A DNA stretch of 64,000 bases, taken from NCBI GenBank assembly GCA_963739515.1, contig CAVUAO010000003.1, forward strand, positions 393,891-457,890, given 5' to 3'. The translations under genes were made by a program, and so were the position numbers. The DNA is from an uncultured Chloroflexia bacterium (GTDB lineage Bacteria; Chloroflexota; Dehalococcoidia; Dehalococcoidales; RBG-16-60-22). The notes under the pieces were generated by a model that did no database searches, was not told where the DNA came from, and saw only the letters and a list, made by a program, of their open reading frames with translations. This document shows positions 15,605-64,000 of the stretch, piece by piece (position 1 is the first letter of the stretch; every line of letters begins with the position of its first letter).

Positions 15605-15618
15605 CTCCATAGGATATC

Positions 15619-15749: not shown

Positions 15750-15762
15750 CCCAGCTAAAAAA

Positions 15763-19801: not shown

Positions 19802-19909
19802 CACCCCCTTTCCCCCTCTCCTTGACTCCCCCTCCCTCACTCTCTATAATTTATCTTAGTTTTAGACTCAACCTTTTCCACACCACCGACTAAAGAGAGG
19901 AATATCAAT

Positions 19910-26088: not shown

Positions 26089-26137
26089 TTGCAGGAACTA
26101 TTACCTACCGGTAATTTAACTGATGAATCGCTCATAG

Positions 26138-29288: not shown

Positions 29289-29771
29289 ATGAAACGACAA
29301 AGTATTAATGAAGATTTAGATAAAAGTAGAATATTGAGTCAACTTAAAAAATACGCAAGAGAAAACAATCTTTCAAATAAACAACTTGCAGAGAGTCTGG
29401 GGGAACCCTACAACAGTCTTAAAAAATGGGAATTCTTTACAACTGCGAAACATGCTCGAAAACCTTCAAAAAAGCATTTAAACAAAATAGACGAATTCCT
29501 AAATAATAAGAATATACCTGAAAATTACGAACGAATTAACACTGCTAGGCATAGAGCAGAAAAGATAAAGTACATTCTACTACTCCTCGAAGATGAATTA
29601 AGATGGTTTCGAGACAACGAACCAAGAATGAGAGATGAATTTCGTAAAGAACTCGACGCTTCTGATATAGGTTACATTTCCAGTTTAATGACTATGTTGA
29701 CTGAAGAGGAGAAATTCAAAAGATGGTTAGCTCTTACCACCTCTCGCTTCCAAGCGTTTAAAAAGGGGTAG
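29289..29771 (+). CDS. Small HTH (XRE-like) protein, AT-rich islet gene 1
   Basis: 160 aa. ..NNLSNKQLAESLGEPYNSLKKWE.. is a helix-turn-helix pattern. The C-terminal half is predicted helical. The first 52 nt contain 13 G+C. Confidence 0.55.
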   Translation: MKRQSINEDLDKSRILSQLKKYARENNLSNKQLAESLGEPYNSLKKWEFFTTAKHARKPSKKHLNKIDEFLNNKNIPENYERINTARHRAEKIKYILLLLEDELRWFRDNEPRMRDEFRKELDASDIGYISSLMTMLTEEEKFKRWLALTTSRFQAFKKG

Positions 29772-29776
29772 TTGAA

Positions 29777-49591: not shown

Positions 49592-50893
49592 CTAATCCAG
49601 CAGCTCCATGATGTGCCTGACCTGAACGGTCTTCTGATGCTGAGCCAGGCTATCGATAAGATGTATCTCACAGCCGGGGCAAGCGGTGACGACGACATCA
49701 GCGCCCGTCGCGGCAATAGAGTCGACCTTCCGGGCGGCGATTTTTTGGGATAAATCGTAAAAATAGATACTGAAAGTCCCCGCCATACCACAGCAGGCCG
49801 CGGCGTCCGCCATTTCCACGTACTTGATATCGGGGAGGGACTTTAGGATTTTACGCGGCGGCTCCTTGACGCCCAGGTAGCGTCCCAGGTGGCATGGCTC
49901 GTGCCAGGTCACGGTCTTGCCGCGGAACTCCGCCGCTACATGGTAGGCGGAGGGGGGCAACTGCAAAACGTCCACCAGGAACTCGGTAATGTCTTTAATC
50001 TTTGCCGCGAACTCCTGATAATCTTTTTTTCTTGCTTCGTTATCCGCTAAAAATTTAACGTAGTTCTTCATCGCCGAGGCACAGGTAGCGCAGTCGGTAA
50101 CGATATATTCCAGATTATTAAAAGCCTTCACATTGGTATCGGCAAAGCGGCGGCCGGCGACGAAATCCCCGGCGCCTAAAAAGACCGGGGCGCCGCAGCA
50201 CCCCTGAGCCCGCGGCACGACTACCTCCACGCCGTTCTTATTTAAAAAACTGATAATTTTCTTGCCCAGCTCGGGAAAAACAAAATCCGTCATACAGCCG
50301 GTAAAATAGCCGACGGTGTACTTCACTTTAACGCCGGCCGGGGGCTTGTTTACCTCCGGGACGGACTGGCGCAGGAACTTGGGGGCTATCTGGGGGATAT
50401 GGCGGCCCTTACCGAGGGCGGAAAGGAAAAAGGAAAGATGGCGCACCGTCCCCTGTGTCTTCGGGAGAAAAATGCCCTGGAACCAGGAAGCGAAGCGTAC
50501 CACCCAGCCAAAGAGGCGGCGGCGCGGCAGCAGCCAGCGGAAAATAAAGTTATAGGGGAAAGGCACGCCCTTTTTCGCCACTTTATCCGCGCGGGCGGCG
50601 GCAATTACCGCGGGCACCTGCGTACCGGCCGGGCAGTTCTGGGAGCAGGTCAGGCACAAAGTGCATTTATTGAGCTGCTGCGCCATCTCATCGGTAAGAG
50701 TCAGCGAGCCGTCAAGCAGGGCGCGGACGAGCATGATTTTACCGCGCGCCACCGACGACTCGACGCGCTCTTCGCGGTAAACGGGGCAGGCGGACATACA
50801 GAAGCCGCACTTGGTACAGCGGTCGAGGTCGGCTTTGAATTTTTCCACCTGGGCAAAGTCAGGACTGGTCTTCATGATTCGGGTTCTTCCCAA
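49592..50893 (-). CDS. (Fe-S)-binding CCG-domain protein, GlcF-like
   Basis: CTKCGFCMSACP and CTLCLTCSQNCP clusters. Two CCG-type domains (..GCCGAP.., ..ACCGMAG.., ..TACPGC). Confidence 0.8.
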   Translation of the reverse strand: MGRTRIMKTSPDFAQVEKFKADLDRCTKCGFCMSACPVYREERVESSVARGKIMLVRALLDGSLTLTDEMAQQLNKCTLCLTCSQNCPAGTQVPAVIAAARADKVAKKGVPFPYNFIFRWLLPRRRLFGWVVRFASWFQGIFLPKTQGTVRHLSFFLSALGKGRHIPQIAPKFLRQSVPEVNKPPAGVKVKYTVGYFTGCMTDFVFPELGKKIISFLNKNGVEVVVPRAQGCCGAPVFLGAGDFVAGRRFADTNVKAFNNLEYIVTDCATCASAMKNYVKFLADNEARKKDYQEFAAKIKDITEFLVDVLQLPPSAYHVAAEFRGKTVTWHEPCHLGRYLGVKEPPRKILKSLPDIKYVEMADAAACCGMAGTFSIYFYDLSQKIAARKVDSIAATGADVVVTACPGCEIHLIDSLAQHQKTVQVRHIMELLD

Positions 50894-52260
50894 ATTTTAC
50901 CGGGGTTGAGGATATGATGGGGGTCGAGGACATCTTTGATTTTCTTCATAATTTCTATCGCCGCGGGGTCCATGGCTTTTTTCAGGAAGCGCTGTTTTTC
51001 CAGACCGATACCGTGCTCGCCGGAAAGCACGCCTCCCAGCGACATGGCTATCTCGATAATATCGTCAATGCATTGCAGGGCGCGCCCGTAATGCTCCTTA
51101 TCGCGGCTATCCGTGAGCACGACCGGATGAAAATTACCGTCGCCGACATGGCCAGCAAAGCTGATGGGAACATCATGGCGGCGGGCGCTCGCCTGGCTCA
51201 ACTTAATGAAATCGGCGATTTTATCCCGCGGCACGGACACGTCCTCATTAATGATGGTATGGGCGCGACTGGAGATATCCGAGAAGTGGGCCTGGCGCGC
51301 CTGCCAGTAGCGGGCGGCTTCGGCTTTATCCGCCGCCACTCTGACTTCAGCGGCGCGGCGCTGACATATCGCCAGGACCTGCTCGGTCTCGGCGGCCACC
51401 GTCTCCGGCAGACCATCGACCTGAATAAGCAGGATTACCTGGGAGCTATCGAGAACGGCGTCCGGCAAAAGACCGCGGAACTTGGTAAACGTCCAGTTAT
51501 CGACGAACTCGACCTTGGAAGGCAGGACGCTAGAGGCAATAATTTCCGTAACGGTCTCGCCGGCCACGGCCACATCGCGGAAAACAGCCACGATGGTCTG
51601 CTCAGACTTAGGCGCCGGGAGCAGTCGTAAAGTAATCTTAGTGATAACGCCCAGCGTGCCCTCGGAGCCGGTAAAAAGCATCATCAGCTCGTAGCCCGTC
51701 CGGTTCTTGGGCGTGAGACCGCCCAGCTTCACCGTCCGGCCGTCCGCCAGCACCACCTCCAGGCCCAGAACATACTGCTTGGTGACGCCGTATTTGAGGC
51801 AGGAAGGACCGCCGGAGTTTTCCGCCACGACGCCGCCCATAGTGCAGCCGGCAAAGCTCTGCGGGTCCGGCGGGAAGAACAGCCCTTCTTGAGCTAAAGC
51901 TGCCTGGAAGTCCTGCAAGACCACGCCGGGCTCGACGGCGGCGTTCAGATTGGTCTTGTTAATATCGATAATGCGATTCATCCGGGTGGTGCACAGGACA
52001 ATGCCGCCGCGAATGGGGATAGAGCCGCCGCTGACATTGGTACCGCCGCCCCGCGGCGTGACTGGAATAGCGTTGGCGTTAGCCAGCTTAAGTATCTCCG
52101 ATATCTGGTCGGCCCGGGAAGGTAAAACGACTACGTCCGGCCGGTGCGACCACATATTGGTGCCGTCATAAGAATAGGCCACCATCTCTTCCGGAGAGGT
52201 CAGCACGTTGTTCCTGCCGACGATGCGGCGCAGTTTTTCAATAAAGCCGGAATCAATCAT
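50872..52260 (-). CDS. FAD-linked oxidase, GlcD / D-lactate dehydrogenase-like
   Basis: ..PVTPRGGGTNVSGG.. FAD-binding PCMH motif. I place the start at ATG 52260 (MIDSGFIEKLRRIVG..). The track extension to 52335 is translated repeat DNA. Confidence 0.82.
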   Translation of the reverse strand: MIDSGFIEKLRRIVGRNNVLTSPEEMVAYSYDGTNMWSHRPDVVVLPSRADQISEILKLANANAIPVTPRGGGTNVSGGSIPIRGGIVLCTTRMNRIIDINKTNLNAAVEPGVVLQDFQAALAQEGLFFPPDPQSFAGCTMGGVVAENSGGPSCLKYGVTKQYVLGLEVVLADGRTVKLGGLTPKNRTGYELMMLFTGSEGTLGVITKITLRLLPAPKSEQTIVAVFRDVAVAGETVTEIIASSVLPSKVEFVDNWTFTKFRGLLPDAVLDSSQVILLIQVDGLPETVAAETEQVLAICQRRAAEVRVAADKAEAARYWQARQAHFSDISSRAHTIINEDVSVPRDKIADFIKLSQASARRHDVPISFAGHVGDGNFHPVVLTDSRDKEHYGRALQCIDDIIEIAMSLGGVLSGEHGIGLEKQRFLKKAMDPAAIEIMKKIKDVLDPHHILNPGKIWEEPES

Positions 52261-52275
52261 AATAGTTTCGACCTT

Positions 52276-52630
52276 ACCCCCTTTATCCCCCTTTCCTTCA
52301 AAGGAGAGGGGGAAGATTTTTAAGAGGGGGTGCAACCCCCTCTTTTTCTTACTCCCCCTTCCCTTTCTAAGGGAAGGGGGCTAAGGGGGATAGGTTCCAA
52401 AAAATTCACTCCCACTATTACTTTACCGTTTTACAGGCGCACGTTCAAGCTTGAATTTACAGCAGGGTGTCTAAGAGGGGCGAAGGGCGGGACGTAAATC
52501 CCTCTCTTATCTCCCTTTACGAAAGGGAGACGTCAATACCCCAAGAGAGTAGCCTGCTAAGAGGGGCGACGCCCCTCTTTTATTTTCTTCCCCCTCTCCT
52601 GGCAGGAGAGGGGGATTAAGGGGGTGAGGT
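52276..52630 (+). repeat. GC-rich hairpin repeat cluster: module-1-like, module 2, module 3, module 1
   Basis: Module 2 at 52321-52395 (TAAGAGGGGGTGCAACCCCCTCTT..CCCCCTTCCCTTTCTAAGGGAAGGGGGCTAAGGGGGATAGGT). Module 3 at 52495-52532. Module 1 at 52559-52630 (AAGAGGGGCGACGCCCCTCTT..CCCCCTCTCCTGGCAGGAGAGGGGGATTAAGGGGGTGAGGT). Confidence 0.85.
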
Positions 52631-52698
52631 AACTACCCTATTGCTTTACAGACTCTCGCTCTTTCTCTACAATAATACTGTAAGAAGGAGTTATCAAC

Positions 52699-53394
52699 AT
52701 GATTAAAGCCGTCTTTTTCGACCTGTACCAGACGCTGGTACGCTACGAGCCGCCGCGGGAAGAAATCGAGACCAGAGTACTTAAAGATTTCGGCATTAAG
52801 ACCAGCCCGGAGAAGCTGGTTCGGCCCATCATCGCCGCTGACGAATTCATCTATAACGAAATCGCCCGGCGGCCTTTAAGCGCCCGGTCGAAAGAAGAAA
52901 AGTTCACCCTTTACGCCCAATACCAGGCCATACTCCTGCGCGAAGCCGGGCTCAAATACGACCAGAAAGTCATCCCCAGCCTGCTCGCCGCCATGCAGCA
53001 ATCGCAGATGGACCTGGTCCTCTTCGACGACGTGGCGCCCACCCTGACCGACCTGAAAGGCAGGGGGCTGATACTGGGCCTGATTTCCAACGTCGAACAG
53101 GACATGGTGCAGACACTGACGAAACTCGGCCTTGCCGCCCGGCTGAAAATAGTCGTCACCTCGCAGGACGCCGGCGCCGGCAAACCGCGGCCGGAGATAT
53201 TCCGAGAGGCTTTAAAACGCGGCGGCTGCCAGGCAGCCGAGGCTATCTATATCGGCGACCAGTATAACGTGGACATCGTCGGGGCGAGGGGGGTGGGGAT
53301 GCAAGGGCTGCTCATCGACCGCAGCGATTACTACCGGGACATCACCGATTGCCCGCGCCTCAAGAGCCTTAAGGAAGTGGTCGGTTATTTATAG
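52699..53394 (+). CDS. HAD-superfamily hydrolase (subfamily IA-like)
   Basis: 231 aa. ..AVFFDLYQTLV.. (motif I variant), ..GLISNVE.. (motif II) and ..YIGDQYNVDIVGA.. (motif IV). Confidence 0.7.
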   Translation: MIKAVFFDLYQTLVRYEPPREEIETRVLKDFGIKTSPEKLVRPIIAADEFIYNEIARRPLSARSKEEKFTLYAQYQAILLREAGLKYDQKVIPSLLAAMQQSQMDLVLFDDVAPTLTDLKGRGLILGLISNVEQDMVQTLTKLGLAARLKIVVTSQDAGAGKPRPEIFREALKRGGCQAAEAIYIGDQYNVDIVGARGVGMQGLLIDRSDYYRDITDCPRLKSLKEVVGYL

Positions 53395-54753
53395 CTCTCC
53401 GCCGCCAAGGGGACATGCACGACACTTGCCCTGCGAGCACAGCGTTTTATAGATGTGGAGAAGTCCCTGCTGGCCCCGGGCGGAATTGACCGGGCACCGG
53501 CTGATGCCCAGCTGACGCCTCATGTGTTTTTCCACAGTGTTTTCCGCTGACGCGGGGTATCGGCGATATATCTCGAGGGCTTTTTCCGCCAGCGCCGGGC
53601 GCGCGGCGGTCCGCCCCCAGGCAACGGCAAAGGGCAACAGCACGTTAATGACGATGGCCTCCGCCCGGCTCTCCCCCAGCAGGGCCGGGACCGAGCGGCC
53701 AGCCGGCATGCCGAAGTCCATATGGCGACGCCAGTATCCTGCGGCATCTACCAGCAGTGCCTCCTCCAGGTCGTTCCTGCCCGTTTCTGACGAGGTTTGT
53801 TCCAGCAGATTAATCAGGCCCGCCGGCAAACCTTCTTTCCCGTAGCGGAGCAGGAGATAGCTCATGGCGGCGATGCGGCGGCAGGCCGAGTTACCCGGCC
53901 TGACTTTAAAAGAGTGCCAGTCACCGGCCGACATGGTCACCTTTTCTCCATAAGCTGACCAGGTCTTTTCGAGCCGGTCAACCCAGGCGTCACCAGTGTC
54001 ATTCAACCGGCGCCACCCCGTCCGCGACGACGGCAACAGCCCGGCCATACCCAGCAACAGAGACTGATAACTGACCAGGCATTCTTCATCCGAAATTTCT
54101 ACCGGCGACGCTGCCAGCAGCCGCGACAGCGGGATACGGCGGGACAGCTCGATCATGGGGACTTTATTTTTCGCATAACCCAGCGCGCCCATGATTCCCT
54201 GATACAAGGCCTGACCGGCCCCTACCAGGGACAGCGTCGCCCTGAATTCGGTTGTTGCGTCAGCAAACCGGCGTTCTCCGGCCGAGTCCAGGATTTCACC
54301 GACAAAAATATCGCCCCGACGGATAATAACATCGCGGCAGGGCATCCCCCGGCGGGACAAGAGACTGACAGGTGCGGCCTCCCGCGCGGTCTTGCTATTA
54401 ATGTATTTCGACAGCGCGAGGGTCGGCACCTTCCGGCCATTTTGCAGCACCACCGCCCGGGCTACGTCATGCCAGTAGACAACGTGCAGAATCACCCGGT
54501 TATAAAGGGGGTCCTGATGATGGCGGTGTCCCCACCAGCTGCTCGACCTGACGTGCACCTCGACGTCTCCTATCTGGAGAACGCCGCCGGTGGCGACAAT
54601 CGCATCGCGTAAATCCGCGCCCCGGTCATCGTTGGGACGGCCCGGATAGACCACATTAACCGGCCCGTCTTCCTCGGTGCACAGGTCAGTGCGTCCCGGC
54701 AGACAGTCCTGCCAGAATTTGACAACGCGGCTCTCCGGAAGGGCGCCGGCCAT
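53389..54753 (-). CDS. DUF2851-like protein
   Basis: 454 aa. ..VVYPGRPNDDRGADLRDAIV..IGDVEVHVRSSSWWGHRHHQDPLYNRVILHVVYWHD.. matches my memory of the DUF2851 N-terminal pattern. Function unknown. Confidence 0.45.
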   Translation of the reverse strand: MAGALPESRVVKFWQDCLPGRTDLCTEEDGPVNVVYPGRPNDDRGADLRDAIVATGGVLQIGDVEVHVRSSSWWGHRHHQDPLYNRVILHVVYWHDVARAVVLQNGRKVPTLALSKYINSKTAREAAPVSLLSRRGMPCRDVIIRRGDIFVGEILDSAGERRFADATTEFRATLSLVGAGQALYQGIMGALGYAKNKVPMIELSRRIPLSRLLAASPVEISDEECLVSYQSLLLGMAGLLPSSRTGWRRLNDTGDAWVDRLEKTWSAYGEKVTMSAGDWHSFKVRPGNSACRRIAAMSYLLLRYGKEGLPAGLINLLEQTSSETGRNDLEEALLVDAAGYWRRHMDFGMPAGRSVPALLGESRAEAIVINVLLPFAVAWGRTAARPALAEKALEIYRRYPASAENTVEKHMRRQLGISRCPVNSARGQQGLLHIYKTLCSQGKCRACPLGGGEL

Positions 54754-54812
54754 TCACCTCACCCCCTTAGAGCGAGTAGTTGGTAGTCAATAATAAGTAA
54801 TCAGGTTTGAAG

Positions 54813-56254
54813 TCAATCGGCACCCGAGAGGTACTGACGGTAGCGGTACAGCGCCGCCAGCGTGGCGATGGCGTCAGCGTCGCCAGCATAGCAGGGGATG
54901 CCGATATCCTGAAAGCCCTGGCGCAGCTCCAGGTAGATTTTCCTATCGCCCAGCGGGCAGACGGCCATAATGGGCTTATCAGGAAAACTCTCCCGGATAT
55001 CTTTAAACAGGGCGGGCACGCTTTTCCCGACCAGCCAGTCGATAGCGCCCAGGATCACTACCGCGGCATCAACGCCGTCATCTTCCAGGACGGCCCGCGT
55101 GGCGGTCCGGTAGGCGGCCTCAAAGCCGCTGGCCTCGATAGCCACCCAGACGTCCACCGGGCTGCGGACGTGCCACCAGTCCGGGTAGACCGCCTTGATT
55201 TTTGCACGGGTGGCGGGGCCAGTTCGGCGATCCTCAGCCCCTGCCGGACGCAGGCATCGACGGCGGTCACGCAGCCGGAGCCGGCCAGGTTGACGATCGC
55301 GACCCGGTTGCCCGCCGGCAGCGGCGCCTGAACGAAGCCCTTCACGACATCCCAGAGCCGCTCGAAACCGGGCACCCGGGTGATGCCCGCCTGCCGGAAA
55401 GCGGCATCATAAATCCGTTCCTCCCCGGCGACCGAGCCGGTATGGGTGGCCGAAGCCGCCGCACCGCCGGCGGTCACCGCCGATTTCAGGATGACGATCG
55501 GCTTGTCTTTGATGATACGCCGGGCCAGCTCCATAAAACGCCCCCCGTTCTTGATGCTCTCCAGATACATCGCGATCACGCGCGTCCCAGAGTCGGCACC
55601 GAAGTACTCGAGCATGTCACTCTCATCGACATCGCATTTATTGCCCAGGCAGGCGATTTTACTGATGCCTATTTCACTATTTATTAAGGGCAGGTAAACC
55701 CCGGTAAAGAGGCCCGTCTGCCCGATGAACCCGACGGTACCCCGCTTGATTTCCCCCTGAGGCAGGAACAGCTTATTGAGGCGGCCCAGACTGGAATCAA
55801 AGCGGGCGTAAGGGTTGATGGTGCCCACACTGTTCGGCCCCATGACCCTTATCCCGGTGGCTTCGGCCGCCCGGGCCAGGCGGCTTTCCATGACCGCCCC
55901 GGACTCGTCCATCTCCCCGAAACCGGCCGATTCGACGATGACGGCCTTGACCCCGGCATTGATGCATTCCTGAAAAGCGGCCAGCACCAGCGCCGGAGGC
56001 AGCACGATAATCCCCAGCTCCACCGCCGCCGGGATTTTTGCCAGGGAGGGGTAGCAGGGCAGGCCCAGGATATGCCCGGCCTGGGGATTGACCGGGTAAA
56101 TTTTGCCCGGGTAGCCCAGCCTTATTAAATTTTCGATGATATTATAACCGCCCTTGCCCGGTTTCCGGGAGGCGCCGACCACGGCGACGCTCTCCGGGGC
56201 GAAGAACGAATTCAGACTTTCCGCGCGGCGATGATTTTCCATCAAACACCTCAA
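54813..56254 (-). pseudogene. ADP-forming acyl-CoA synthetase alpha-type (CoA-binding / succinyl-CoA-synthetase-like) protein; 1-nt deletion near 55211-55218
   Basis: ..FFAPESVAVVGASRKPGKGGYNI.. CoA-binding N-terminus. Track ORFs 55058-56254 and 54813-55157 join as ..RIAELAP|ATRAKIKAVYPDWWHVRSPVDVWVAIEASG.. when one G is restored. Confidence 0.78.
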
Positions 56255-56304
56255 ACAGGGATACTAATAACTTGCGACGATTATACACGGTATCGTGTAA
56301 TTTG

Positions 56305-56547
56305 TCAAGGCTTTTTTTGAGGAGGCGCGGCCTGATATGAGAATTTCGCTCGCTCGGCGATAAAAGTCAGCAGGGTAGCCGAGGCACCGCGCGGCCGGTA
56401 CATCCCGGTCTCCCACTCGCTGATGGTCTGCTGCCGCGTGCCCAGCTGCTCCGAAAGCTCGCGCTGGGTCAGGCCCAGGTGGCGGCGCAAAGCCTGGATA
56501 CTTTGCCCGTCCCATTGTTTTTTCCCGGGGGAGGTCTTCTTGTTCAC
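56305..56547 (-). CDS. XRE-family helix-turn-helix protein
   Basis: 80 aa, ..IQALRRHLGLTQRELSEQLGTRQQTISEWETG.. Confidence 0.75.
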   Translation of the reverse strand: MNKKTSPGKKQWDGQSIQALRRHLGLTQRELSEQLGTRQQTISEWETGMYRPRGASATLLTFIAERAKFSYQAAPPQKKP

Positions 56548-56600
56548 GACCTGATTCTACACGAGGCGGTGAAAAGCGTCAATAGAGAAGCTGTTTTGAT

Positions 56601-56875
56601 ACCTCACCCTCTTAATCCCCCTCTCCTTCTGAGGCAGGGTGAAGGAGAGGGGGAGAGAAAAGAAAGAGGGGCTGGCGCCCCTCTTCGCAGGCTACTCCCT
56701 GCTGGTGGGGGAAACTAAGGGATAAGCCTTTAATGCCGCGAGGGCGGCGAGGGTGGGAATCCTTCGACAGGCTCAGGATGAACGGTAAAAGGGGGAGTTT
56801 GAGGGGGCGAAGCCCCCTCTCAAAACAATTCCCCCTTCCCTTGGCAAGGGAAGGGGGACCAAGGGGGATAGGTTT
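56601..56875. repeat. GC-rich hairpin repeat cluster: module 1 (reverse), 'TTCGACAGGCTCAGGATGAAC' motif, module 2 (forward)
   Basis: 56601-56685 is the reverse complement of module 1. 56801-56873 is GAGGGGGCGAAGCCCCCTC..CCCCCTTCCCTTGGCAAGGGAAGGGGGACCAAGGGGGATAGGT. Track ORFs 56612-57259 and 56733-57770 are translated repeat or antisense. Confidence 0.85.
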
Positions 56876-56885
56876 TATAAACTCC

Positions 56886-59459
56886 TTAGCACTTGGTATA
56901 GCCGCAGGCCGGGCAGTGATAGCAGCCTTCCTGATAGACGAGCATATTAGAGCATTCCGGGCACTGGCCGGCCATGTTCTTGGCCAGGCCGTAATCCTCC
57001 AGACCGGCCTTTTCCCCGGTGTTGACGTGCTTTTCCAGCACGCTGGCAATGGCGTCCGCGCAAGAGAGGATAGACTTGCCGCCCTCCCAGGCGATGGACG
57101 GACAGCGGATGCCGCGCAGTTGCTTGACAATCTGGGCGACATCCACGCCGGAACGCAACGCAGTGGAGATAAGGCGGCAGATGGCTTCCAGCTGGGCGGA
57201 AGCGCAGGCGCCGGCCTTGCCGAGCGTGGAAAAAACCTCAAATATACCTTTATCGTCATAGTTCACGGTGATATAGAGAGAGCCACAGCCAGTGCTGACC
57301 TTGGTGGACGTTCCTTTCGTCTCGGTGGGTCTTTTACGCGGGGTACGGCTGATGGCTTCTTCCGCCGCCTTTTCCTTTTTACCGGTGGTCAACACCTGGC
57401 TATCGCGGCTCCTATCGCGGTAGATGGTAATGCCTTTAAGCCCTTCCTCATAGGCGAGCATATAAGCGCGGGCGACGTCCTCGCGGGTGGCTTCGTGGGG
57501 GAAGTTGACGGTCTTGGAGACGGCGTTATCCGTGGACCTCTGGAAAGCCGCCTGCATTTTCACGTGCCATTCCGGGGTGATTTCGTGGGCGGTGACGAAA
57601 ACCCTCTTGATTTTTTCGGGCACGCCTTTAATATCGCCCAGGTGAGTGCCTTCGGCCAGCTTTTTCATCAGCTCTTCGGAATAGAACCCGCCCTTTTTGG
57701 CGGCCTCTTCGAAATAAGGGTTGACCTCGATGAAAGGCGTGCCGTCGAGGACGGTCTTGGTATAGCTTAAAGCGAAAAGGGGCTCGATGCCGCTGGAGCA
57801 GCCGGCGATCATGCTTAAAGTGCCGGTGGGGGCGATGGTAGTGCGGGTGGCATTGCGGACGCGGGGCCCGTCCGGGACGTCATAGATGCTGTCCTTAAAA
57901 GCGGGGAAAACGCCGCGCTCTTCCGCCAGCTCCACCGATGCAATGGTGGCCTTTTTGTTGATAAAGTCCATGATGTCTTCCGCGACTTCCAGCGCCTCGT
58001 GGGAGTTATAGGGCACGCCGAGCATCACCAGCATATCGGCAAAGCCCATAATGCCCAGACCGATTTTCCGCGTCTTTTTCGTCATTTCCTCGATCTGCGG
58101 CAGCGGGAACTTATTGACATCGATAACGTTATCCAGAAAGCGGACGGCCGTCTTGACCGTCTGCGCCAGCCTGGGGTAATCGATTTCATAGCCGGAGCCT
58201 TTCTTCTTCATCATCCGGGAAAGGTTTATCGAGGCCAGATTACATGATTCGTAGGGGAGGAGGGGCTGCTCGCCGCAGGGATTGGTGCTTTCGATTTTAC
58301 CGAGTTTCGGGGTGGGATTAGCCTCGTTGATGCGGTCGATGAAGACGATACCGGGGTCGCCGGTGCGCCACGCCATATCGACGATTTTATCGAAGACATC
58401 TTTGGCATTGAGCTTACCGACGCTCTCTTTGGTACGCGGATTAATCAGCTCATAGTCGGCGCCGGCTTTAACCGCTTCCATAAATTCGGCGGTCAAAGCC
58501 ACCGAAATATTAAAGTTGGTCAGGGCTTTCATATCCTCTTTAGCGGTGATGAACTTCATGATATCCGGGTGGTCGATGTTCATGATGCCCATATTGGCGC
58601 CGCGCCGGGTACCCCCCTGCTTGGTGACATCAGTGACGGTATCGAAGGCGCGCATGAAAGAAACGGGACCGCTGGCCACGCCGCCGGTAGAGCCGACGAC
58701 GTCGTTTTCCGGGCGGAGACGGGAGAAAGAGAAGCCGGTGCCACCGCCGCTCTTGTGGATGAGGGCGGTATATTTCACGGCGTCGAAAATCGACTCCATG
58801 GAATCGTCGACGGGGAGGACGAAGCAGGCGGAAAGCTGTCCCAGCTTTTTACCCGCATTCATCAGGGTGGGAGAATTGGGGAGGAACTCCAACCCAGACA
58901 TCAGCTTGAAAAACTCATCTTCAACGGCCTTGACATCGGCCTTGGGACGATAAATAATCTCCGCGGCGGCAATCGCTTTCGCTACCCGGCGGAACATCTG
59001 CTCCGGCGTTTCCGTCACCTTGCCATGGTCATCTCTGAGCAGATAACGCTTTTCCAGCACCTGCAAAGCCGTATCAGTCAGGCCGTTGGCGGATATTGAT
59101 TCCTGCGGGGTTTTGGCCTCGGTTCCGGTATCCATTTTGGTTATTTCCTCCTCTGGCGGCGCTGGTTTTTCGGCATTTAAAACTTCCATGACCATGGCTT
59201 CTATTTCCGCCTCGGTGGGCAGGCGGCCGCGGAAGGTCTGGCGGGTATGCTTGTCCACCATTTCCTCCATGCCCGGCAGGGTCGGGACGAAAGACGCCTG
59301 GGCCTTTTCAAGTCGCTCGATGACCTGGCCCGTCAGCTTCTCGACAAGCTGGCGGTCGCGGATGCCCATGGCGGCAGCATTATCGAAGACAATGCGGGCG
59401 ATCTGGCTGCGATTGATGGGGGAAGACTTATTTTTCCCCGCGTGATTGCCGGTGCTCAT
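56886..59459 (-). CDS. nrdJ: Adenosylcobalamin-dependent (class II) ribonucleotide reductase
   Basis: 857 aa. ..NPCGEQPLLPYESCNL.. active-site region. C-terminal zinc ribbon CPECSNMLVYQEGCYHCPACG. The start overlaps the nrdR stop (ATGA). Confidence 0.9.
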   Translation of the reverse strand: MSTGNHAGKNKSSPINRSQIARIVFDNAAAMGIRDRQLVEKLTGQVIERLEKAQASFVPTLPGMEEMVDKHTRQTFRGRLPTEAEIEAMVMEVLNAEKPAPPEEEITKMDTGTEAKTPQESISANGLTDTALQVLEKRYLLRDDHGKVTETPEQMFRRVAKAIAAAEIIYRPKADVKAVEDEFFKLMSGLEFLPNSPTLMNAGKKLGQLSACFVLPVDDSMESIFDAVKYTALIHKSGGGTGFSFSRLRPENDVVGSTGGVASGPVSFMRAFDTVTDVTKQGGTRRGANMGIMNIDHPDIMKFITAKEDMKALTNFNISVALTAEFMEAVKAGADYELINPRTKESVGKLNAKDVFDKIVDMAWRTGDPGIVFIDRINEANPTPKLGKIESTNPCGEQPLLPYESCNLASINLSRMMKKKGSGYEIDYPRLAQTVKTAVRFLDNVIDVNKFPLPQIEEMTKKTRKIGLGIMGFADMLVMLGVPYNSHEALEVAEDIMDFINKKATIASVELAEERGVFPAFKDSIYDVPDGPRVRNATRTTIAPTGTLSMIAGCSSGIEPLFALSYTKTVLDGTPFIEVNPYFEEAAKKGGFYSEELMKKLAEGTHLGDIKGVPEKIKRVFVTAHEITPEWHVKMQAAFQRSTDNAVSKTVNFPHEATREDVARAYMLAYEEGLKGITIYRDRSRDSQVLTTGKKEKAAEEAISRTPRKRPTETKGTSTKVSTGCGSLYITVNYDDKGIFEVFSTLGKAGACASAQLEAICRLISTALRSGVDVAQIVKQLRGIRCPSIAWEGGKSILSCADAIASVLEKHVNTGEKAGLEDYGLAKNMAGQCPECSNMLVYQEGCYHCPACGYTKC

Positions 59460-59989
59460 CGCCGCGACCTCCGCTGAGTTTTAGTCTGCACCGGCAACTC
59501 TTCCACCGGGAGCAAAGGAAGCTGGTCGGCGGGGGGCTTGGGGGCATGGCCGGCCAAGCTATCGACTTCCTGCTTTAGAGTGGTGATATCAGCGAACTCA
59601 CGGTAGACGCTGGCGAAGCGGATATAGGCAATCTGGTCCAGGCTCTTCAAACGCTCCATAACTATATCGCCGATATGCGCGCTGGGTATTTCCGGTCGGC
59701 CGGTCTGGTAAAGTTGAGCCTCGATTTCATCGACAAGCTCAACCACAGCGCCACTGGCCAGGGGCCTTTTATCACAGGCTTTGCGGATGCCCGCGAGCAG
59801 CTTTTCGCGGTCGAACTCCTCGCGCCTCCCATCCTTTTTAATGACAAAGAGACTGGCGCGCTCGAAGCGCTCGTAGGTGGTGAAACGAGAATCGCAACGC
59901 AGACACTGGCGCCGGCGGCGGATGCCGTCGTTAACGTCACGCGAGTCAATCACCTTCGAATCGATATAGCCGCAATAGGGGCAGTTCAT
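59456..59989 (-). CDS. nrdR: Transcriptional repressor NrdR
   Basis: MNCPYCGYIDSKVIDSR..RRRRQCLRCDSRFTTYE zinc ribbon plus an ATP-cone. I use ATG 59989 rather than the track start 60004. Confidence 0.9.
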   Translation of the reverse strand: MNCPYCGYIDSKVIDSRDVNDGIRRRRQCLRCDSRFTTYERFERASLFVIKKDGRREEFDREKLLAGIRKACDKRPLASGAVVELVDEIEAQLYQTGRPEIPSAHIGDIVMERLKSLDQIAYIRFASVYREFADITTLKQEVDSLAGHAPKPPADQLPLLPVEELPVQTKTQRRSRR

Positions 59990-60024
59990 GGGCCTTCTCC
60001 ACATCCTGTGGTGTCAAGGCTTAT

Positions 60025-60053
60025 AAGTTACCACAATATATTGTGCTTGTCAA
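60025..60053 (-). promoter_or_regulatory. Sigma70-like promoter of the nrdR-nrdJ operon
   Basis: On the minus strand: TTGACA (60053-60048), 17-nt spacer, TAACTT (60030-60025). The spacer contains the NrdR box. Confidence 0.5.
60032..60045 (-). promoter_or_regulatory. NrdR box
   Basis: CACAATATATTGTG is a perfect 14-bp palindrome matching the NrdR-box core (acaCwAtATaTwGtgt). A weaker second palindrome, CCACATCCTGTGG, lies at 59999-60011, ~33 bp away centre to centre. Confidence 0.7.
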
Positions 60054-60120
60054 TAGGTTTTCACGTGTGGATGTTAATGATTTTTTAATTATTTACATTT
60101 TTGTTACTTTTACCTAATTT

Positions 60121-60280
60121 CCTCACCCCTGCCCCTCTCCAGCCTGCAGCATTCGACAGACCGTTGTTCACCTAGCTGGAGAGGGGTGTAATATTGAGAG
60201 GGGCTAGCGCCCCTCTCGGCAGGCTACTCCCTTTTAATGTAGGGGCGAATACGAGGGGTTACGACCCCTCTTAGACGCCT
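60121..60280 (+). repeat. GC-rich hairpin repeat cluster
   Basis: CCCCTCTCCAGC..(30-nt loop with TTCGACAGACCGTTGTTCAC)..GCTGGAGAGGGG. Then GAGAGGGGCTAGCGCCCCTCTCGGCAGGCTACTCCCT and GAGGGGTTACGACCCCTCTTAGACGCC. Confidence 0.8.
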
Positions 60281-60329
60281 CGATTTTTGGTCTTTACCTT
60301 ATATTATCCATGGGATATGATGATACTGT

Positions 60330-61646
60330 ATGAATTACCAGCAGTCCCTGGAATATCTCCTAAAGTTCGCCGACTACGAGCGGGTTTCACGGGCGGGAAT
60401 CGTCTGGGACCTGAAGCGCATCGAGAGGCTGCTGGCCAGGCTGGGTGACCCGCAAAACCAGGCGAGGTCGGTGCACGTGGCGGGGACAAAGGGAAAAGGG
60501 AGCACGTCGGCGATGATAGCCTCGGTGCTGAAAAGCGCGGGATATAAGGTCGGGCTTTATACGTCACCACACCTGTTGTCGTATACCGAACGGATACGGG
60601 TGAACGGCCAGCCCATCGCCGAGGCGGACTGGGCCAAGCTGACCGAAATCATCCAGCCGCACGTCGAGGCGGAGAACCGCACAGGCGACCTGGGGCAACT
60701 GACGACCTTCGAGATATTCACGGCGATGGCCTTTCTCCACTTCCGGCAGGTGAAAGCGGACTGGCAAGTGCTCGAGGTGGGGCTGGGGGGGAGGCTCGAC
60801 GCGACGAACGTCGTAAAACCGCAGGTGTGCGTCATCACGTCCATCAGCTACGATCACATGGACGTGCTCGGGGATACGTTAGCCAAGATAGCCGGGGAGA
60901 AGGCGGGGATTATAAAGAGCGGGGCGGACGTCGTGAGCGCGCCGCAGTTCCCGGAGGCTTTAGAAGTCATCGAGAGAGTCTGCCGGGAGAAAGGCGTCCG
61001 CCTGATAAAGGTCGGGGAGGACGTCACGTGGGAAGCGGGCGAGTTCGACGTTGAGGGACAGTATTTCCGCGTGAAGGGTCGGAAAGGAGAATACGACCTG
61101 TGGATACCCCTGCTCGGGGAGCACCAGCTCGAGAACGCCTCGAACGCGGTCGCGGCTGTCGAGCTCATAACCGAAAGGGGCGCCGTCATCAAACCGGAGG
61201 CCATCGTCGAAGGGCTGGGGTCGGTCGACTGGCCGGGACGTCTGCAGGTGCTCGGGAAGGAGCCGTGGGTGGTCGTCGACGGGGCGCATAACGCCTACTC
61301 GATACAAAAGCTCGGGGAGGCGCTGGAGCGGTATTTCCGGTTCGAGAAGCTGACGCTGATACTCGGGTTCGGGAACGACAAGGACGTGGCCGGGATGGCG
61401 CGGGAAGCGGCAGAGATAACGGGGTACATCATCCTCGTGGCGTCCAAGCACCCCAAGGCGATAAAGCCGGAGGCGCTAAAGGCGGAGTTCCAGAAGCACG
61501 GGGTGACGCCGCGGGTGGTGGACTCGGTGAAGGAGGCGGTGAAGCTGGCGCTGGAGGGGGCGGGGGACAACGACCTGGTGTGCGCGGCGGGGAGCATCTT
61601 TGTGATTGCCGAGGTGCTGGAGTACTTCGGGCAAACGAGTAGTTAG
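60330..61646 (+). CDS. folC: Folylpolyglutamate synthase / dihydrofolate synthase
   Basis: 438 aa with the Mur-ligase P-loop VAGTKGKGST and ..ITSISYDHMDVLG.. Confidence 0.88.
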   Translation: MNYQQSLEYLLKFADYERVSRAGIVWDLKRIERLLARLGDPQNQARSVHVAGTKGKGSTSAMIASVLKSAGYKVGLYTSPHLLSYTERIRVNGQPIAEADWAKLTEIIQPHVEAENRTGDLGQLTTFEIFTAMAFLHFRQVKADWQVLEVGLGGRLDATNVVKPQVCVITSISYDHMDVLGDTLAKIAGEKAGIIKSGADVVSAPQFPEALEVIERVCREKGVRLIKVGEDVTWEAGEFDVEGQYFRVKGRKGEYDLWIPLLGEHQLENASNAVAAVELITERGAVIKPEAIVEGLGSVDWPGRLQVLGKEPWVVVDGAHNAYSIQKLGEALERYFRFEKLTLILGFGNDKDVAGMAREAAEITGYIILVASKHPKAIKPEALKAEFQKHGVTPRVVDSVKEAVKLALEGAGDNDLVCAAGSIFVIAEVLEYFGQTSS

Positions 61647-61667
61647 TAATTAGTAGTTAGTAATTAG
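61640..61667. repeat. Heptamer-spaced TAG array (14-bp unit TAGTTAGTAATTAG x2)
   Basis: TAGTTAG TAATTAG TAGTTAG TAATTAG. It begins within the last codons of folC and includes its TAG stop. Confidence 0.7.
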
Positions 61668-61675
61668 GAATTTTA

Positions 61676-61801
61676 ATATTCGTTTTTGAAGATTTTTTTT
61701 GGTGTTTCTCACGATGAAATAGCTTCAGTATTCGTTTTTAGATTATGTAAAACCCAGCTTCACAACCGGGGTATTCGTTATTCGTTTTATGTTAAGCCGG
61801 G
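61676..61801 (+). repeat. AT-rich element made of ~45-bp units (family 'ATTCGTTTTT..AGCTTCA'), 3 units
   Basis: ATATTCGTTTTTGAAGATTTTTTTTGG..ATAGCTTCA, then GTATTCGTTTTTAGATTATGTAAAACCCAGCTTCA, then TATTCGTTATTCGTTTTATGTTAAGCCGGG. Confidence 0.8.
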
Positions 61802-61836
61802 AAGAAAGAAGGGGAAAAGGGGCGGGGGGTATTCCA

Positions 61837-61864
61837 TTGACAATCAACTATTAAAATATATAAT
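61837..61864 (+). promoter_or_regulatory. Near-consensus sigma70 promoter at the left edge of the terminal AT-rich islet
   Basis: TTGACA (61837-61842), 16-nt spacer, TATAAT (61859-61864), ~35 nt upstream of ATG 61900. Confidence 0.55.
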
Positions 61865-61899
61865 TAATATAGTTATGTAAATAATTAAAGAGAAGATCA

Positions 61900-63201
61900 A
61901 TGGCCCTTGAATTCATCGGTGATGCAATAAGTTTAAGTGGCTTGACAGGTTCAAAAGTCAAGTGTGACATAATAAGGCAATATTACCCACTTTGGTGGAA
62001 TATAACATCTGGCGGAGATGTAAAAAACCACGAGTGGCCAACAGCAATCGTTGAACTTGATGCTGCAACGGGCGAAGTATTTATTGAAGACACCCAGACA
62101 ACTATTTTAGGTTCATCAGGTCATACACTAGAGCTAAAATGTAACAATCCGTATACTAAGAATTTAAAAATAATTCTAGTTGAAAAAGACCCTCAGTGTT
62201 TTATTCATTTAAAAAATGTGATAAATAGACGTTGGAAAAATGTTGATATTAAGATGGCGGAAGGACCAATAAATAAAAATAACTCCAATATTTACTTGCT
62301 TAATAAAAATCTTGAAGATGCTCTCAATCAAATAGAAAATATTCAACTTGGTAATTCTCTTTTCTTTTTTGATCCTTTAAGAAGTGTTGAATATAGCGTA
62401 ATTGAGAAAGTAGCTAAAAAGAGGATAACGACATATTATAGGCCTGGTACGGAATTTATAATTTTCGTTTTTACTTCTGATTGGTTTTTAGGCAGAAACG
62501 ATTTTTCAGGTTTACCTTCTGAAGTAAATTCAAATATTTGGTCAGCAGATGAAAATAAATCAGTACTAGAAGCTGATGCACTTTTTGGAGACACTAATTG
62601 GCGAGATCAGATATTAACGAAAGACTCAATACATGAGAAAGAAATCAAACTAGTAGAAAATTATAGAGAAAGATTACATAAATGGTTTAGATACGTACTT
62701 CCGATGCCCTTTAGTCCAAAAGAAAGGCAAATATTCCATCTCATATTATGTTCTAACTATGAAATCGGTGTAAGAGCTACAAGAAGTTTTTATTCAAATA
62801 TAATGAATAATCCAAAATATTTACCCGATAACACCTCTGCCTTCAGGTATTTTAAAAATCAACATCCAGAATTATTCATTGGATTATCCGGGGCTCAAAG
62901 GCCAGCACACTGGAAAATTCTTTGGGATATTATTTCCGAACATGAAGAAGGTGTCTGCGACCGTTTATGTCGTTCTTTTGAAAAAATTGTAACAGATGAA
63001 GGAAAAAGACAAAGAATTCTTGATTGGCTTGAAGAAAAAGGCTATTTGATTAACAAAGGAAATGCCAATGTTTGGAGAGTTCAAATTCCGCAATACAGAC
63101 TAGATTGGGGATCGTTAAAAAACAAGATGAATATCAGCCCTCCCAAGCCTTTTGAACCATTATCTTTACGTCCATTACCTCTAAAGGACATTAACGAATG
63201 A
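61900..63201 (+). CDS. TcmP-like ('three-Cys-motif partner protein'-like) protein, AT-rich islet
   Basis: 433 aa. The ordered motifs GSKVKCDIIRQYYPLWWNI, AIVELDAATGE, LKIILVEKDPQCFIHLKN, LFFFDPLRS and EFIIFVFTSDW match my memory of the TcmP layout (K..i..Y...w / DlFAG-G / E.d...f..L / FiDPfG). A C-terminal wHTH-like region (ILDWLEEKGYLINKG) follows. Not verified by search. Confidence 0.4.
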   Translation: MALEFIGDAISLSGLTGSKVKCDIIRQYYPLWWNITSGGDVKNHEWPTAIVELDAATGEVFIEDTQTTILGSSGHTLELKCNNPYTKNLKIILVEKDPQCFIHLKNVINRRWKNVDIKMAEGPINKNNSNIYLLNKNLEDALNQIENIQLGNSLFFFDPLRSVEYSVIEKVAKKRITTYYRPGTEFIIFVFTSDWFLGRNDFSGLPSEVNSNIWSADENKSVLEADALFGDTNWRDQILTKDSIHEKEIKLVENYRERLHKWFRYVLPMPFSPKERQIFHLILCSNYEIGVRATRSFYSNIMNNPKYLPDNTSAFRYFKNQHPELFIGLSGAQRPAHWKILWDIISEHEEGVCDRLCRSFEKIVTDEGKRQRILDWLEEKGYLINKGNANVWRVQIPQYRLDWGSLKNKMNISPPKPFEPLSLRPLPLKDINE

Positions 63202-63983
63202 TAAATTCATCTTTAATAAAAGGCAATAAAAAGAAGACAACATCGGGCACGAAAGAATGGGCTGATTATAATGTTAATTGTATTAAAGGTTGCTCAAACG
63301 ATTGTCGCTATTGCTACGCAAAAATAATGGCAAAACGTTTTGGCAGAACTACGGATAAAAGTTGGAAAATATTAGAAATTAATAAAAAGATAGTGGAGGG
63401 TTCTTTTAGAAAATATAACGGCAGAGTAATGTTCCCAAGTACTCACGATATATTAGATACCCCAGAATCCAGAGAAGCATGCTTTACCGTAATTCAAAAA
63501 TTATTGGAAACTGGTAATGATATATTAATAACAACAAAACCAAAGTTGAATATTATTAAAGATATAACTCGTCTTTTCTCTAAATATAGCCCTCAAATTC
63601 AATTTAGATTTACAATAACATCTATCAATGATAGCCTTTTGCTTTTTTGGGAACCAAACGCTCCTCTCTTTCAAGAACGTTTTTATTCCTTAAAATACGC
63701 ATTTAAAAAGGGGTATAAAACAAGCGTGTCCATTGAGCCCTTTTTAGACAATCATCCAGGAAAACTCGTAAATACCATTTATCCTTTCACGACTGAATCA
63801 ATTTGGCTTGGTATTATGAATTACATTCCTCAAAATGGAATAAATGAAGTAGATAAACAAAAATACCTAGATATTAGAGAGAATTACGAATTAAACCATT
63901 TAAAAAGTGTATATTCTGAATTTAACAACTACCCTAAAATTAGATTTAAAGATAGTATTAAACTTAAGTTAGGTTTGTTATAA
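63198..63983 (+). CDS. Radical-SAM-like protein, SplB/COG1533-like (Cys triad CxxxCxxC)
   Basis: 261 aa. ..NCIKGCSNDCRYCYAKIMAKRF.. carries CX3CX2C followed by YA, as in SPL-like 'DNA repair photolyase' radical SAM proteins. ..ILITTKPKLNIIKDI.. resembles their TKS..v.RD motif. The start overlaps the upstream stop (ATGA). Confidence 0.55.
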   Translation: MINSSLIKGNKKKTTSGTKEWADYNVNCIKGCSNDCRYCYAKIMAKRFGRTTDKSWKILEINKKIVEGSFRKYNGRVMFPSTHDILDTPESREACFTVIQKLLETGNDILITTKPKLNIIKDITRLFSKYSPQIQFRFTITSINDSLLLFWEPNAPLFQERFYSLKYAFKKGYKTSVSIEPFLDNHPGKLVNTIYPFTTESIWLGIMNYIPQNGINEVDKQKYLDIRENYELNHLKSVYSEFNNYPKIRFKDSIKLKLGLL

Positions 63984-64000
63984 TCCCTCCACCACTATAT

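Follow-up and report, generated by a model that had tools for sequence, protein, structure and literature searches.

What is the role of two adjacent genes whose guanine plus cytosine (G+C) content is far below that of their surroundings, and which close a stretch of DNA from an uncultured Chloroflexia bacterium of the Dehalococcoidales? The stretch, called the window below, comprises 64,000 nucleotides (nt) of contig CAVUAO010000003.1 (assembly GCA_963739515.1). Gene 1 encodes a protein of the TcmP (three-Cys-motif partner protein) family and gene 2 a radical S-adenosylmethionine (SAM) enzyme which is a sister of the DUF5131 family. TcmP and DUF5131 are large families, routinely annotated and never characterised, and PADLOC lists related pairs as defence candidates only; the pair studied here offers a small, ready-to-clone system for this functional question. 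We report that it forms a complete, horizontally acquired cassette and we argue, tentatively, that it modifies DNA in conflicts between hosts and mobile elements. An earlier note, made from the sequence of the window, had described an acquired AT-rich islet which encodes TcmP and an SPL-like radical-SAM protein and continues beyond the window. Of this interpretation the two family assignments, the linkage of the genes and the acquisition stand, whereas the likeness to SPL and the continuation have to be given up.

A complete two-gene cassette downstream of folC

The cassette and its right boundary comprise the following features, the two genes being taken from the open reading frame (ORF) listing and from direct reading.

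61837..61864, plus strand: sigma-70-type promoter TTGACA-16-TATAAT, matching at 12 of 12 positions, 36 nt 5' of the gene 1 ATG
61887..61895, plus strand: purine-rich stretch AAAGAGAAG, read from the sequence, 4 nt before the gene 1 ATG
61900..63201, plus strand: gene 1, long-form TcmP, 433 amino acids (aa)
63183..63188, plus strand: Shine-Dalgarno-like AAAGGA for gene 2, within the last codons of gene 1
63198..63983, plus strand: gene 2, radical-SAM enzyme, 261 aa, sister of DUF5131
63978..64000, minus strand: 3' end of the convergent host gene ribD (..EDIVVEGL-stop), from contigs L001 and L135; right cassette boundary

The two genes overlap by 4 nt (ATGA). Between 61750 and 64000 the G+C content is 0.29-0.36, compared to 0.55-0.63 in the upstream folC/nrdR/nrdJ region, and the means are 0.323 for the gene pair and 0.582 for positions 50000-61600. 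Chance would give 0.006 perfect promoter matches in each shuffle of the islet that preserves its composition; looser promoter-like sites are not enriched there (9 observed, 9.1 expected). In contig L135, which carries the nearest relative of the pair, a TTGACA is found at an equivalent distance, about 65 nt 5' of its gene 1 ATG. The promoter and the two overlapping genes of low G+C content had been seen correctly in the earlier note. The purine-rich stretch is a possible weak ribosome-binding site for gene 1, judged from its sequence. At the position equivalent to AAAGGA the junction sequences of relatives have (A/G)AGGAGAT, again inside the last TcmP codons, and this conserved Shine-Dalgarno sequence fits a conserved translational coupling of gene 2.

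To follow the DNA beyond the window, an exact protein look-up was made, which gave no record for gene 1 and FolC, and for gene 2 a Logan contig of 1867 nt only. In Logan contig L001 an identical gene 2 is followed by a convergent gene of high G+C content with the C-terminus given above, and the matching gene in L135 encodes a full RibD with deaminase and RibD_C domains. The gene 2 stop codon (63981-63983) adjoins the ribD stop codon (63978-63980), the palindrome TTATAA (63978-63983) being common to the ribD stop and to the last codon plus stop of gene 2. Because the convergent ribD overlaps the gene 2 stop the cassette consists of two genes only, and the islet does not run on past the window end as had been supposed.

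On the left side, the nucleotide identity to L135 (73% across 2120 nt) starts exactly at the gene 1 ATG, and a host repeat array, described further below, precedes the promoter; therefore the cassette extends from about 61830 to 63983. The AT-rich segment 61647-61800 was considered as a part of the islet and rejected, as it is a dispersed host repeat also found 3' of folC in relatives. Of the AT-rich stretch, 61647 to about 61800 is thus not foreign. Within this span the cassette is complete and has its own promoter, and such a minimal two-gene unit with a consensus promoter lends itself to heterologous expression. Nothing points to a mechanism of integration: no direct repeats flank the cassette apart from short ones at chance level, no tRNA or tmRNA genes were found in 55-64 kb and no Rfam matches in 59-64 kb, and from 56.9 kb to the window end the ORF listing contains, beside the pair, NrdJ-, NrdR- and FolC-like genes only.

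The gap between folC and ribD is an insertion hotspot

Metagenome contigs were searched with FolC. Relatives at 57-61% FolC identity have the order nrdR-folC-ribD with about 23 nt between the convergent stops (for example L150), which represents the empty site. In closer relatives (63-87% FolC identity) the gap harbours other cargo, mostly of lower G+C content than folC, and none of it includes TcmP or the radical-SAM gene:

L139: EVE-like protein (weak match)
L143: DUF559 endonuclease-like protein and a 178-aa protein
L166: SDH-type ClpP-like protease
L168: 3'-5' exonuclease and a homologue of the 178-aa protein
L145: RelA_SpoT synthetase and BrnT toxin

The 177-178-aa protein found in the gaps of both L143 and L168 has no assigned function, and L169 and L172 are also among the relatives which mark the gap as a hotspot. 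The folC-ribD gap is therefore a variable insertion hotspot in this lineage, and with an empty site in relatives the cassette located there was horizontally acquired, as the earlier note had proposed. Hotspots with an empty site and alternative cargo are the kind of setting which has been used to find new defence systems.

In L135 the pair sits at the identical folC-ribD junction, with a G+C content of 0.31 compared to 0.53 for ribD, and the C-terminus of the L135 RibD shares only 67% identity with that of this host. To judge from these sequences, the pair would either have been retained for long with its foreign composition or have been inserted repeatedly at this site.

Gene 1 belongs to the TcmP family

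Gene 1 scores 68.4 bits against the NCBIfam model TIGR04474 (TcmP; cut-off 53, E = 8.9e-19), residues 18-292 aligning to positions 3-253 of 263, and the assignment made earlier from the motif layout is thereby supported. Homologues at 57-78% identity are all about 433 aa long. An exhaustive profile search of 1.84 billion representatives gave only 125 hits, about 15 of them full-length clusters at 50% identity, so that the long form is a narrow clade; searches of viral contigs, GenBank phages and plasmids yielded no long-form TcmP.

In the AlphaFold model (mean predicted local distance difference test score, pLDDT, 84.2) residues 1 to about 302 adopt a class I SAM-methyltransferase fold. Behind it come a helical insertion and, at residues 336 to about 410, a C-terminal winged helix. 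Foldseek matches the model to CmoA, HNMT, Trm1, RlmJ and METTL16 with probability 1.0 and E values of 3e-5 to 2e-3. The protein has ELDAATGE (52-59) as motif I, LVE (93-95) and FFFDPLR (155-161), a motif IV of the D-P type. Divergent TcmPs at other loci retain K21, Y28, a canonical motif I of the form D-x-[FYH]-[AS]-G-x-G and an invariant F-x-D-P. Binding of SAM by gene 1 is plausible according to the model, and methyl transfer is uncertain.

A relationship to the RlmJ-type rRNA m6A methyltransferases was considered and rejected: the hhalign probability is 6.8% with a profile of diverse TcmPs (26 columns, at motif I) and 0.07% with the long-form profile, so that homology beyond the fold is unsupported. 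TcmP profiles gave nothing significant against the PDB (SelB winged helix, E = 0.69; RsmD-like protein, E = 0.59).

The C-terminal tail (residues 414-433, 63139-63198) has low model confidence and a conserved PP.P..PLSL(K/R)PLSL.EI pattern (PLSL+PL..+I). Its last codons double as the Shine-Dalgarno sequence of gene 2. The tail loosely resembles clamp-binding peptides, and it could be a docking peptide for the partner.

Gene 2 encodes a radical-SAM enzyme related to DUF5131

Gene 2 exceeds the cut-off of the Pfam family Radical_SAM (PF04055, 32.7 bits, cut-off 29.5). Both sequence segments named in the earlier note, GCSNDCRYCYA and ITTKP, are present, and the cluster motif reads C32-x3-C36-x2-C39-Y-A. 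Among 129 family members of 30-100% identity the residues C32, C36, C39, Y40, K114 and P115 are conserved to 93-99%, and the cysteine triad, whose conservation in homologues had been left to be checked, to 98-99%. Besides the triad, the invariants of the family are W21, N27, H83, D84, K114, R137, E152, R161, S176, S178, E180, W203 and K251. At E <= 1e-3 the family comprises 3736 clusters at 90% identity; the best 120 of these 3736 show 58-100% identity and a length of about 261 aa. In cultured phages and plasmids only matches of 22-30% identity were found (ATV radical-SAM protein, mobile pair protein B).

The nearest named family is DUF5131 (PF07505), which gene 2 misses narrowly with 26.9 bits compared to a cut-off of 28.9; the match covers the N-terminal half, profile positions 5-114 of 243. 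Precomputed DUF5131 matches on relatives of gene 2 are weak or faint, and gene 2 matches phrog_13321 at 5e-20. For an alignment we used three phage proteins which were picked by a motif of the DUF5131 type and are putative members of that family. Gene 2 and these proteins have in common the signature EW[AT]D..N...GC...C..CYA..[MA]..R and the motifs F..H, TK and WLG. With the N-terminal signature of DUF5131 and the canonical radical-SAM spacing, gene 2 is a sister of DUF5131. It therefore belongs to the expected 'three-Cys' partner class of TcmP itself and is not a substitute for such a partner. Taken together, the profile matches establish the family assignments of both genes.

The term 'SPL-like' of the earlier note is too specific. 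Gene 2 was rejected as an SPL, as it scores 18.4 against TIGR04070 (cut-off 400) and 15.9 against PF20903 (cut-off 27) and has a serine in place of the catalytic cysteine. A methyl-synthase mechanism like that of RlmN/Cfr with two extra cysteines was also rejected as a property of the family: invariance of C28 and C95 is confined to the close clade, and family-wide they are conserved to only 27% and 65%.

The gene 2 model (pLDDT 76.8) consists of alternating beta-alpha units and represents a partial TIM-barrel fold. Foldseek found SuiB, ChlB, SkfB, viperin and NifB with probabilities of 0.85-1.0 and weak E values (5.6e-3 to 2.8e-2).

Pairing, distribution and neighbours

Scanning one genome per species yielded 79 loci, whose hosts include Dehalococcoidales, Bathyarchaeia, Methanoregula, Promethearchaeota, Desulfobacterota, Bacteroidales and Planctomycetota. 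In the close clade (at least 56% identity) a long TcmP gene lies directly upstream on the same strand at 18 of 20 loci, often with the ATGA overlap. Pairing is thus conserved in this clade and the genes are linked in other genomes, as the earlier note required of a true pair; the hosts are Dehalococcoidia, Bathyarchaeia, Methanoregula and a deltaproteobacterium, that is, Bacteria and Archaea. At 18 of 18 loci the G+C content of the pair is below that of its flanks, the mean difference being 0.089.

The distant clade (37-55% identity) has another TcmP subtype at a few loci (seven adjacent, one 6 kb away). The rest of this clade adjoins tyrosine integrases (14 loci), serine recombinases and D5-type primases. 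Solo copies of the gene 2 family at 30-49% identity are present in 53 viral contigs, and in the 47 of these 53 contigs in which the gene was called no TcmP occurs within 8 kb. The neighbours of the viral copies include DnaB, SSB, HU and the Dam, Dcm and D12 methyltransferases. The distribution of the radical-SAM family is thus tied to mobile elements.

The 17 close-pair loci have 134 neighbours, and no family is as frequent among these as N6_Mtase. Restriction-modification genes adjoin the pair in L008 (type I) and L006 (type IIG), and the remaining neighbours are housekeeping genes. TcmP is described from prophage or restriction-enzyme neighbourhoods; this window has folC and ribD instead, relatives L006, L008 and L136 have restriction-type neighbours, and in L007 a recombinase lies near the pair. 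L136 belongs to Dehalogenimonas sp. 4OHTPN (GCA_024281335.1), in which positions 2646-12117 encode on one strand an SNF2/PLD nuclease, an MmeI/Eco57I methyltransferase, TcmP and the radical-SAM protein, with intergenic gaps of 2, 21 and -4 nt and a G+C content of 0.45-0.49 in a host of 0.60. This organism is a cultured carrier, where the pair, downstream of a restriction-like module, could be studied.

Some further observations concern these loci. In the Dehalogenimonas island the SNF2-helicase/PLD-nuclease has 1135 aa and the methyltransferase, which includes an SLFN_AlbA_2 domain, 1307 aa; a separate SPASM-like radical-SAM gene comes next and a serine recombinase is nearby. In L009, a metagenome-assembled genome of Methanoregula, the pair lies 76 nt upstream of an Mre11-Rad50-NurA-HerA double-strand-break repair operon on the same strand (8884-15080). 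TcmP is split into two ORFs in L008 (6619-7954) and L019 (6655-7972), the downstream radical-SAM gene being intact; the split may reflect genuine decay or a frameshift error, long-read assemblies being suspected. In the Mycobacterium phage prophiT36-2a (L220, 787-3388) a gene of the DUF5131 type bears the annotation 'RNA methyltransferase'; it is located two genes 3' of a DNA methyltransferase gene, both within a RecT/RepA replication module.

Fusions to DNA methyltransferases

The gene 2 homologue of L032 makes up the C-terminal domain of a protein of 830 aa, which has a PF01555 DNA methyltransferase at its N-terminus; read residue by residue, the methyltransferase half has its DPPY motif and motif I intact. 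A search with the L032 protein, followed by scoring with a hidden Markov model of the gene 2 family, revealed at least 18 distinct protein clusters in which a full-length domain of this family is fused to a PF01555 DNA N6/N4-methyltransferase. The fused radical-SAM domains score 225-287 bits and retain the signature motifs of the family (for example L032/P0241, P0245 and P0255). Three of these fusions also have a DUF1848 radical-SAM domain and two an AAA+ domain. Besides, L054 encodes a DUF1848-radical-SAM fusion, and in L012 the gene 2 homologue is followed by a PA0069-like radical-SAM gene. Fusions of TcmP itself to the radical-SAM protein were not found in the exhaustive profile search.

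The gene 2 family thus reaches beyond the TcmP pairing, with solo copies in phages and integrative elements and with fusions to DNA methyltransferases. The distant solo phage copies and the fusions to DPPY DNA methyltransferases are new in this analysis, and we found no papers which describe PF01555-radical-SAM fusions. The fusions point to DNA as the substrate.

A protein of 570-680 aa adjoins genes of the family in L030 (8968-10725), L032 (4577-6289) and L054 (4328-6364), its neighbours including the methyltransferase-radical-SAM and DUF1848-radical-SAM fusions. It has no Pfam match (L030 copy) and no significant PDB match (L030 and L032 copies), and it may be a further partner.

What the pair may do

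A nucleic-acid or defence function for the pair is plausible. The best explanation, which we favour tentatively, is that of a DNA-modifying module for conflicts between hosts and mobile elements, be it restriction-modification, defence or anti-restriction. It is supported by the family assignments, the fold of TcmP, the linkage of the two genes, the fusions, the DNA-linked nature of the nearest families and the conflict-gene context; DNA is the most likely target.

Such a module might work as follows. Both genes would be expressed from one promoter, and the coupling of gene 2 to gene 1 would favour matched amounts of the two proteins. TcmP, judged from its modelled fold, would bind DNA and SAM, select and present the target base and perhaps methylate it by means of its D-P motif IV. 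Its radical-SAM partner would cleave SAM reductively on a [4Fe-4S] cluster to yield a 5'-deoxyadenosyl radical, which would remove a hydrogen atom from the base that TcmP presents and may have methylated, and a covalent DNA mark would be installed or remodelled. This mark would serve self/non-self discrimination or protection from restriction. A more far-reaching claim, which we regard as possible and rather doubtful, is that the TcmP pairs and the methyltransferase fusions together make up a new class of radical-chemistry DNA modification, in which a methyltransferase-fold subunit presents or methylates a base and a radical-SAM enzyme of the DUF5131/SPL class turns it into an undescribed mark or acts, instead of a nuclease, as the restriction arm, spread horizontally among anaerobic Bacteria, Archaea (Asgard included) and their viruses.

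Several points weigh against the proposed DNA modification. The reaction chemistry of the pair is inferred throughout. The fold searches with gene 2 gave just generic radical-SAM and TIM-barrel matches. Motif I of long-form TcmP is A-A-T-G and not A-G-x-G, and motif IV is DPLR, without the aromatic residue of amino-methyltransferases; TcmP may therefore bind SAM or DNA without methylating. Most close-pair loci, this window included, have housekeeping neighbours and no nuclease. Finally most members of the gene 2 family, namely 53 of 80 genome loci and all 53 viral loci, are without TcmP. With solo copies in the majority the radical-SAM enzyme can function by itself, and TcmP may have no more than a regulatory role.

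The main rival, which overlaps with the DNA-modification reading and which we consider unlikely, holds that the pair is a restriction-like or abortive effector. TcmP would sense or bind unmodified foreign DNA, or be a protective or regulatory subunit, and the radical-SAM enzyme would damage DNA: hydrogen abstraction by its radical would lead to strand breaks, cross-links or base lesions and replace the nuclease of restriction-modification. Such a role would suit the matches of the two proteins to both components, A and B, of PDC-M41 and PDC-M30 among the PADLOC candidates, the toxin- and defence-type cargo in the hotspot of relatives and the restriction-modification neighbours in L006, L008 and Dehalogenimonas. 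A compact, integrase-free pair with lasting foreign G+C content is also typical of selfish restriction-modification or toxin-antitoxin modules, and the methyltransferase-radical-SAM fusions resemble the fused type IIG enzymes in architecture. However, an unguarded DNA-damaging toxin is hard to square with solo radical-SAM genes being common in phages and integrative elements, or with the intact radical-SAM genes beside a split TcmP in L008 and L019, unless these are long-read frameshift errors. Moreover, no defence phenotype was found in the literature for PDC-M30 or PDC-M41, and we know of no radical-SAM enzyme that breaks DNA strands, which also counts against this rival.

It is improbable, and less likely than either of these two explanations, that the pair performs direct-reversal DNA repair, the radical-SAM enzyme reversing a lesion or cross-link like SPL and the methyltransferase-fold protein recognising and flipping the lesion. 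SPL is indeed the best PDB match of gene 2 (E = 0.01), in an alignment that takes in the cluster motif as well as the S-x-D and EP strands, but the SPL catalytic cysteine is replaced by an invariant serine and the scores are far below the family cut-offs. Weak matches to the SOS-regulon proteins PA0069 and Rv2578c could be taken in the same sense; the promoter in the window, however, is a consensus one and looks constitutive. The Methanoregula pair next to Mre11-Rad50-NurA-HerA (L009) and the phage copies among RecT, SSB and DnaB genes fit repair as well, whereas a patchy, horizontally transferred distribution in a hotspot of conflict cargo is unlike that of a housekeeping repair gene, and a fusion to active DPPY DNA methyltransferases is not expected of one.

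Least probable of all, and likewise ranked below the first two explanations, is a substrate other than DNA: like many methyltransferase-fold/radical-SAM pairs, this one would act on RNA (tRNA or rRNA), on a protein or on a small molecule. No substrate has direct evidence, the fold matches of TcmP include the RNA and small-molecule methyltransferases CmoA, Trm1, RlmJ, METTL16 and HNMT and one phage DUF5131-type gene is annotated as 'RNA methyltransferase', but it is with DNA methyltransferases of the PF01555 class that fusions recur, the context is one of restriction-modification genes and mobile elements, TcmP has a winged-helix domain and the homology to RlmJ is unsupported.

Host repeats and other islets in the window

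Two repeat features lie between folC and the cassette, on the host side:

61638..61665, plus strand: 14-nt perfect tandem duplication, AGTAGTTAGTAATT x2, overlapping the folC stop (61644-61646); outside the cassette
61672..61800, plus strand: host intergenic array of three or four units of about 44 nt (TATTCGTTTTT..TTATGT.AA..CAGCTTCA); adjoining the cassette, outside it

The 44-nt array recurs in the window at 13141-13252 (minus strand) and 25652-25763 (plus strand), in the latter case with one more unit visible from about 25608. Written as TATTCGTTTTT-4-TTATGT.AAG..AGCTTCA, the unit has 7 matches in the window, 0.02 being expected. The array is also found 3' of folC in relatives which lack the TcmP/radical-SAM pair and carry other cargo, including the four closest ones (L139-L142); in L139 and L141 low-G+C sequence follows directly. 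As to the role of the array, a recombination hotspot, a regulatory function and a small mobile repeat are all conceivable. Short tandem runs of the TAGTTA type adjoin two of the arrays (AGTAGTTAGTAATT x2 at 61638-61665 and ACTAGTTACTAGTTGCTAGTGACTAGTTATTAGT at 25786-25825), and both repeats may be one element.

A second islet of low G+C content (0.38-0.40) is located at 29289-31303 on the plus strand. Its products are a 160-aa protein, which matches HTH_3 weakly, and a 508-aa protein, which contains an ATPase domain of the HATPase_c_3 (GHKL/MORC-type) family; the islet could be a separate defence-type pair. More low-G+C pockets (0.40-0.43) are found at about 15000-16000, 19000-20000 and 26100-26900. 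The last of these comprises two overlapping minus-strand ORFs about 0.4 kb past the 44-nt array that lies 3' of a 307-aa ORF (24589-25512). The host genome seems to be dotted with small foreign islets.

Comparison with known families and systems

The pair is a variant of the known TcmP/DUF5131 pairing (TIGR04474 with Gp37/Gp68, PF07505). In both cases TcmP comes first and the partner adjoins it on the same strand, and restriction-modification or mobile-element contexts are common to these pairs and to relatives of the present one. The partners differ: DUF5131 proteins have C-x6-C-x2-C and a C-terminal GGESGP...FKQWG, gene 2 has C-x3-C-x2-C and, towards the C-terminus, QFRFT, FWEP and SxSxEP. 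In PADLOC, gene 1 matches the A components and gene 2 the B components of PDC-M41 (E = 1e-5 and 2.5e-6) and PDC-M30 (1e-3 and 1e-5) in the same order. These matches are weak, the B match covers the N-terminal 40-70 residues, and the models belong to candidate systems without curated cut-offs. In the literature we found no functional study or phenotype for TcmP, DUF5131, PDC-M30 or PDC-M41.

Like the pair, the PF01555 fusions join a domain of the gene 2 family to a module of the SAM-methyltransferase fold. They are found in integrative elements and differ in that this module is a beta-class DPPY amino-methyltransferase and not TcmP, that both parts form a single polypeptide and that identity to gene 2 is 37-46%. 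A classical restriction-modification system was rejected for the cassette, as it has no nuclease domain and the TcmP motif IV, DPLR, is not of the (D/N/S)PP(Y/F/W) form.

The COG1533 proteins PA0069 and Rv2578c are SOS/LexA-regulated. Together with the pair B proteins of TIGR04470 they show weak homology to gene 2 in the radical-SAM core (25-49 bits compared to equivalog cut-offs of 360-430); they are linked to DNA damage or mobile elements, and their sizes and partners are unlike those of gene 2. The assignment of gene 2 as radical SAM mobile pair protein B (TIGR04470) was rejected, as it scores 48.8 compared to 410 bits and its partner is TcmP, not a second radical-SAM protein.

SPL shares with gene 2 the CX3CX2C-Y radical-SAM motif, and the S-x-D and EP strands align in what is the best PDB match (4fhc and related). 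Unlike gene 2 it is about 80 residues longer and belongs to a sporulation context, and its catalytic cysteine aligns with the invariant S81. In RadicalSAM.org, DUF5131 (Megacluster 5-2) and SPL (Megacluster 5-3) belong to one megacluster, and this placement does not extend to gene 2 (PMC9477430).

A precedent for an enzyme of the SPL class which acts on an already modified base in DNA is gp53 of phage M6, an SPL-like radical-SAM isomerase that remodels a modified thymidine within DNA for anti-restriction hypermodification (PMC8989533). A tblastn search of GenBank phages with gene 2 (E up to 1e-3) returned no record of Pseudomonas phage M6. The partners of gp53 are a kinase, a transferase and a pyridoxal-phosphate enzyme, whereas the partner of gene 2 is a methyltransferase-fold protein. 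If the pair modifies DNA, gene 2 would be just the second radical-SAM enzyme to install a DNA modification, after gp53, and a function would be provided for thousands of genes in phages, integrative elements and uncultured anaerobes.

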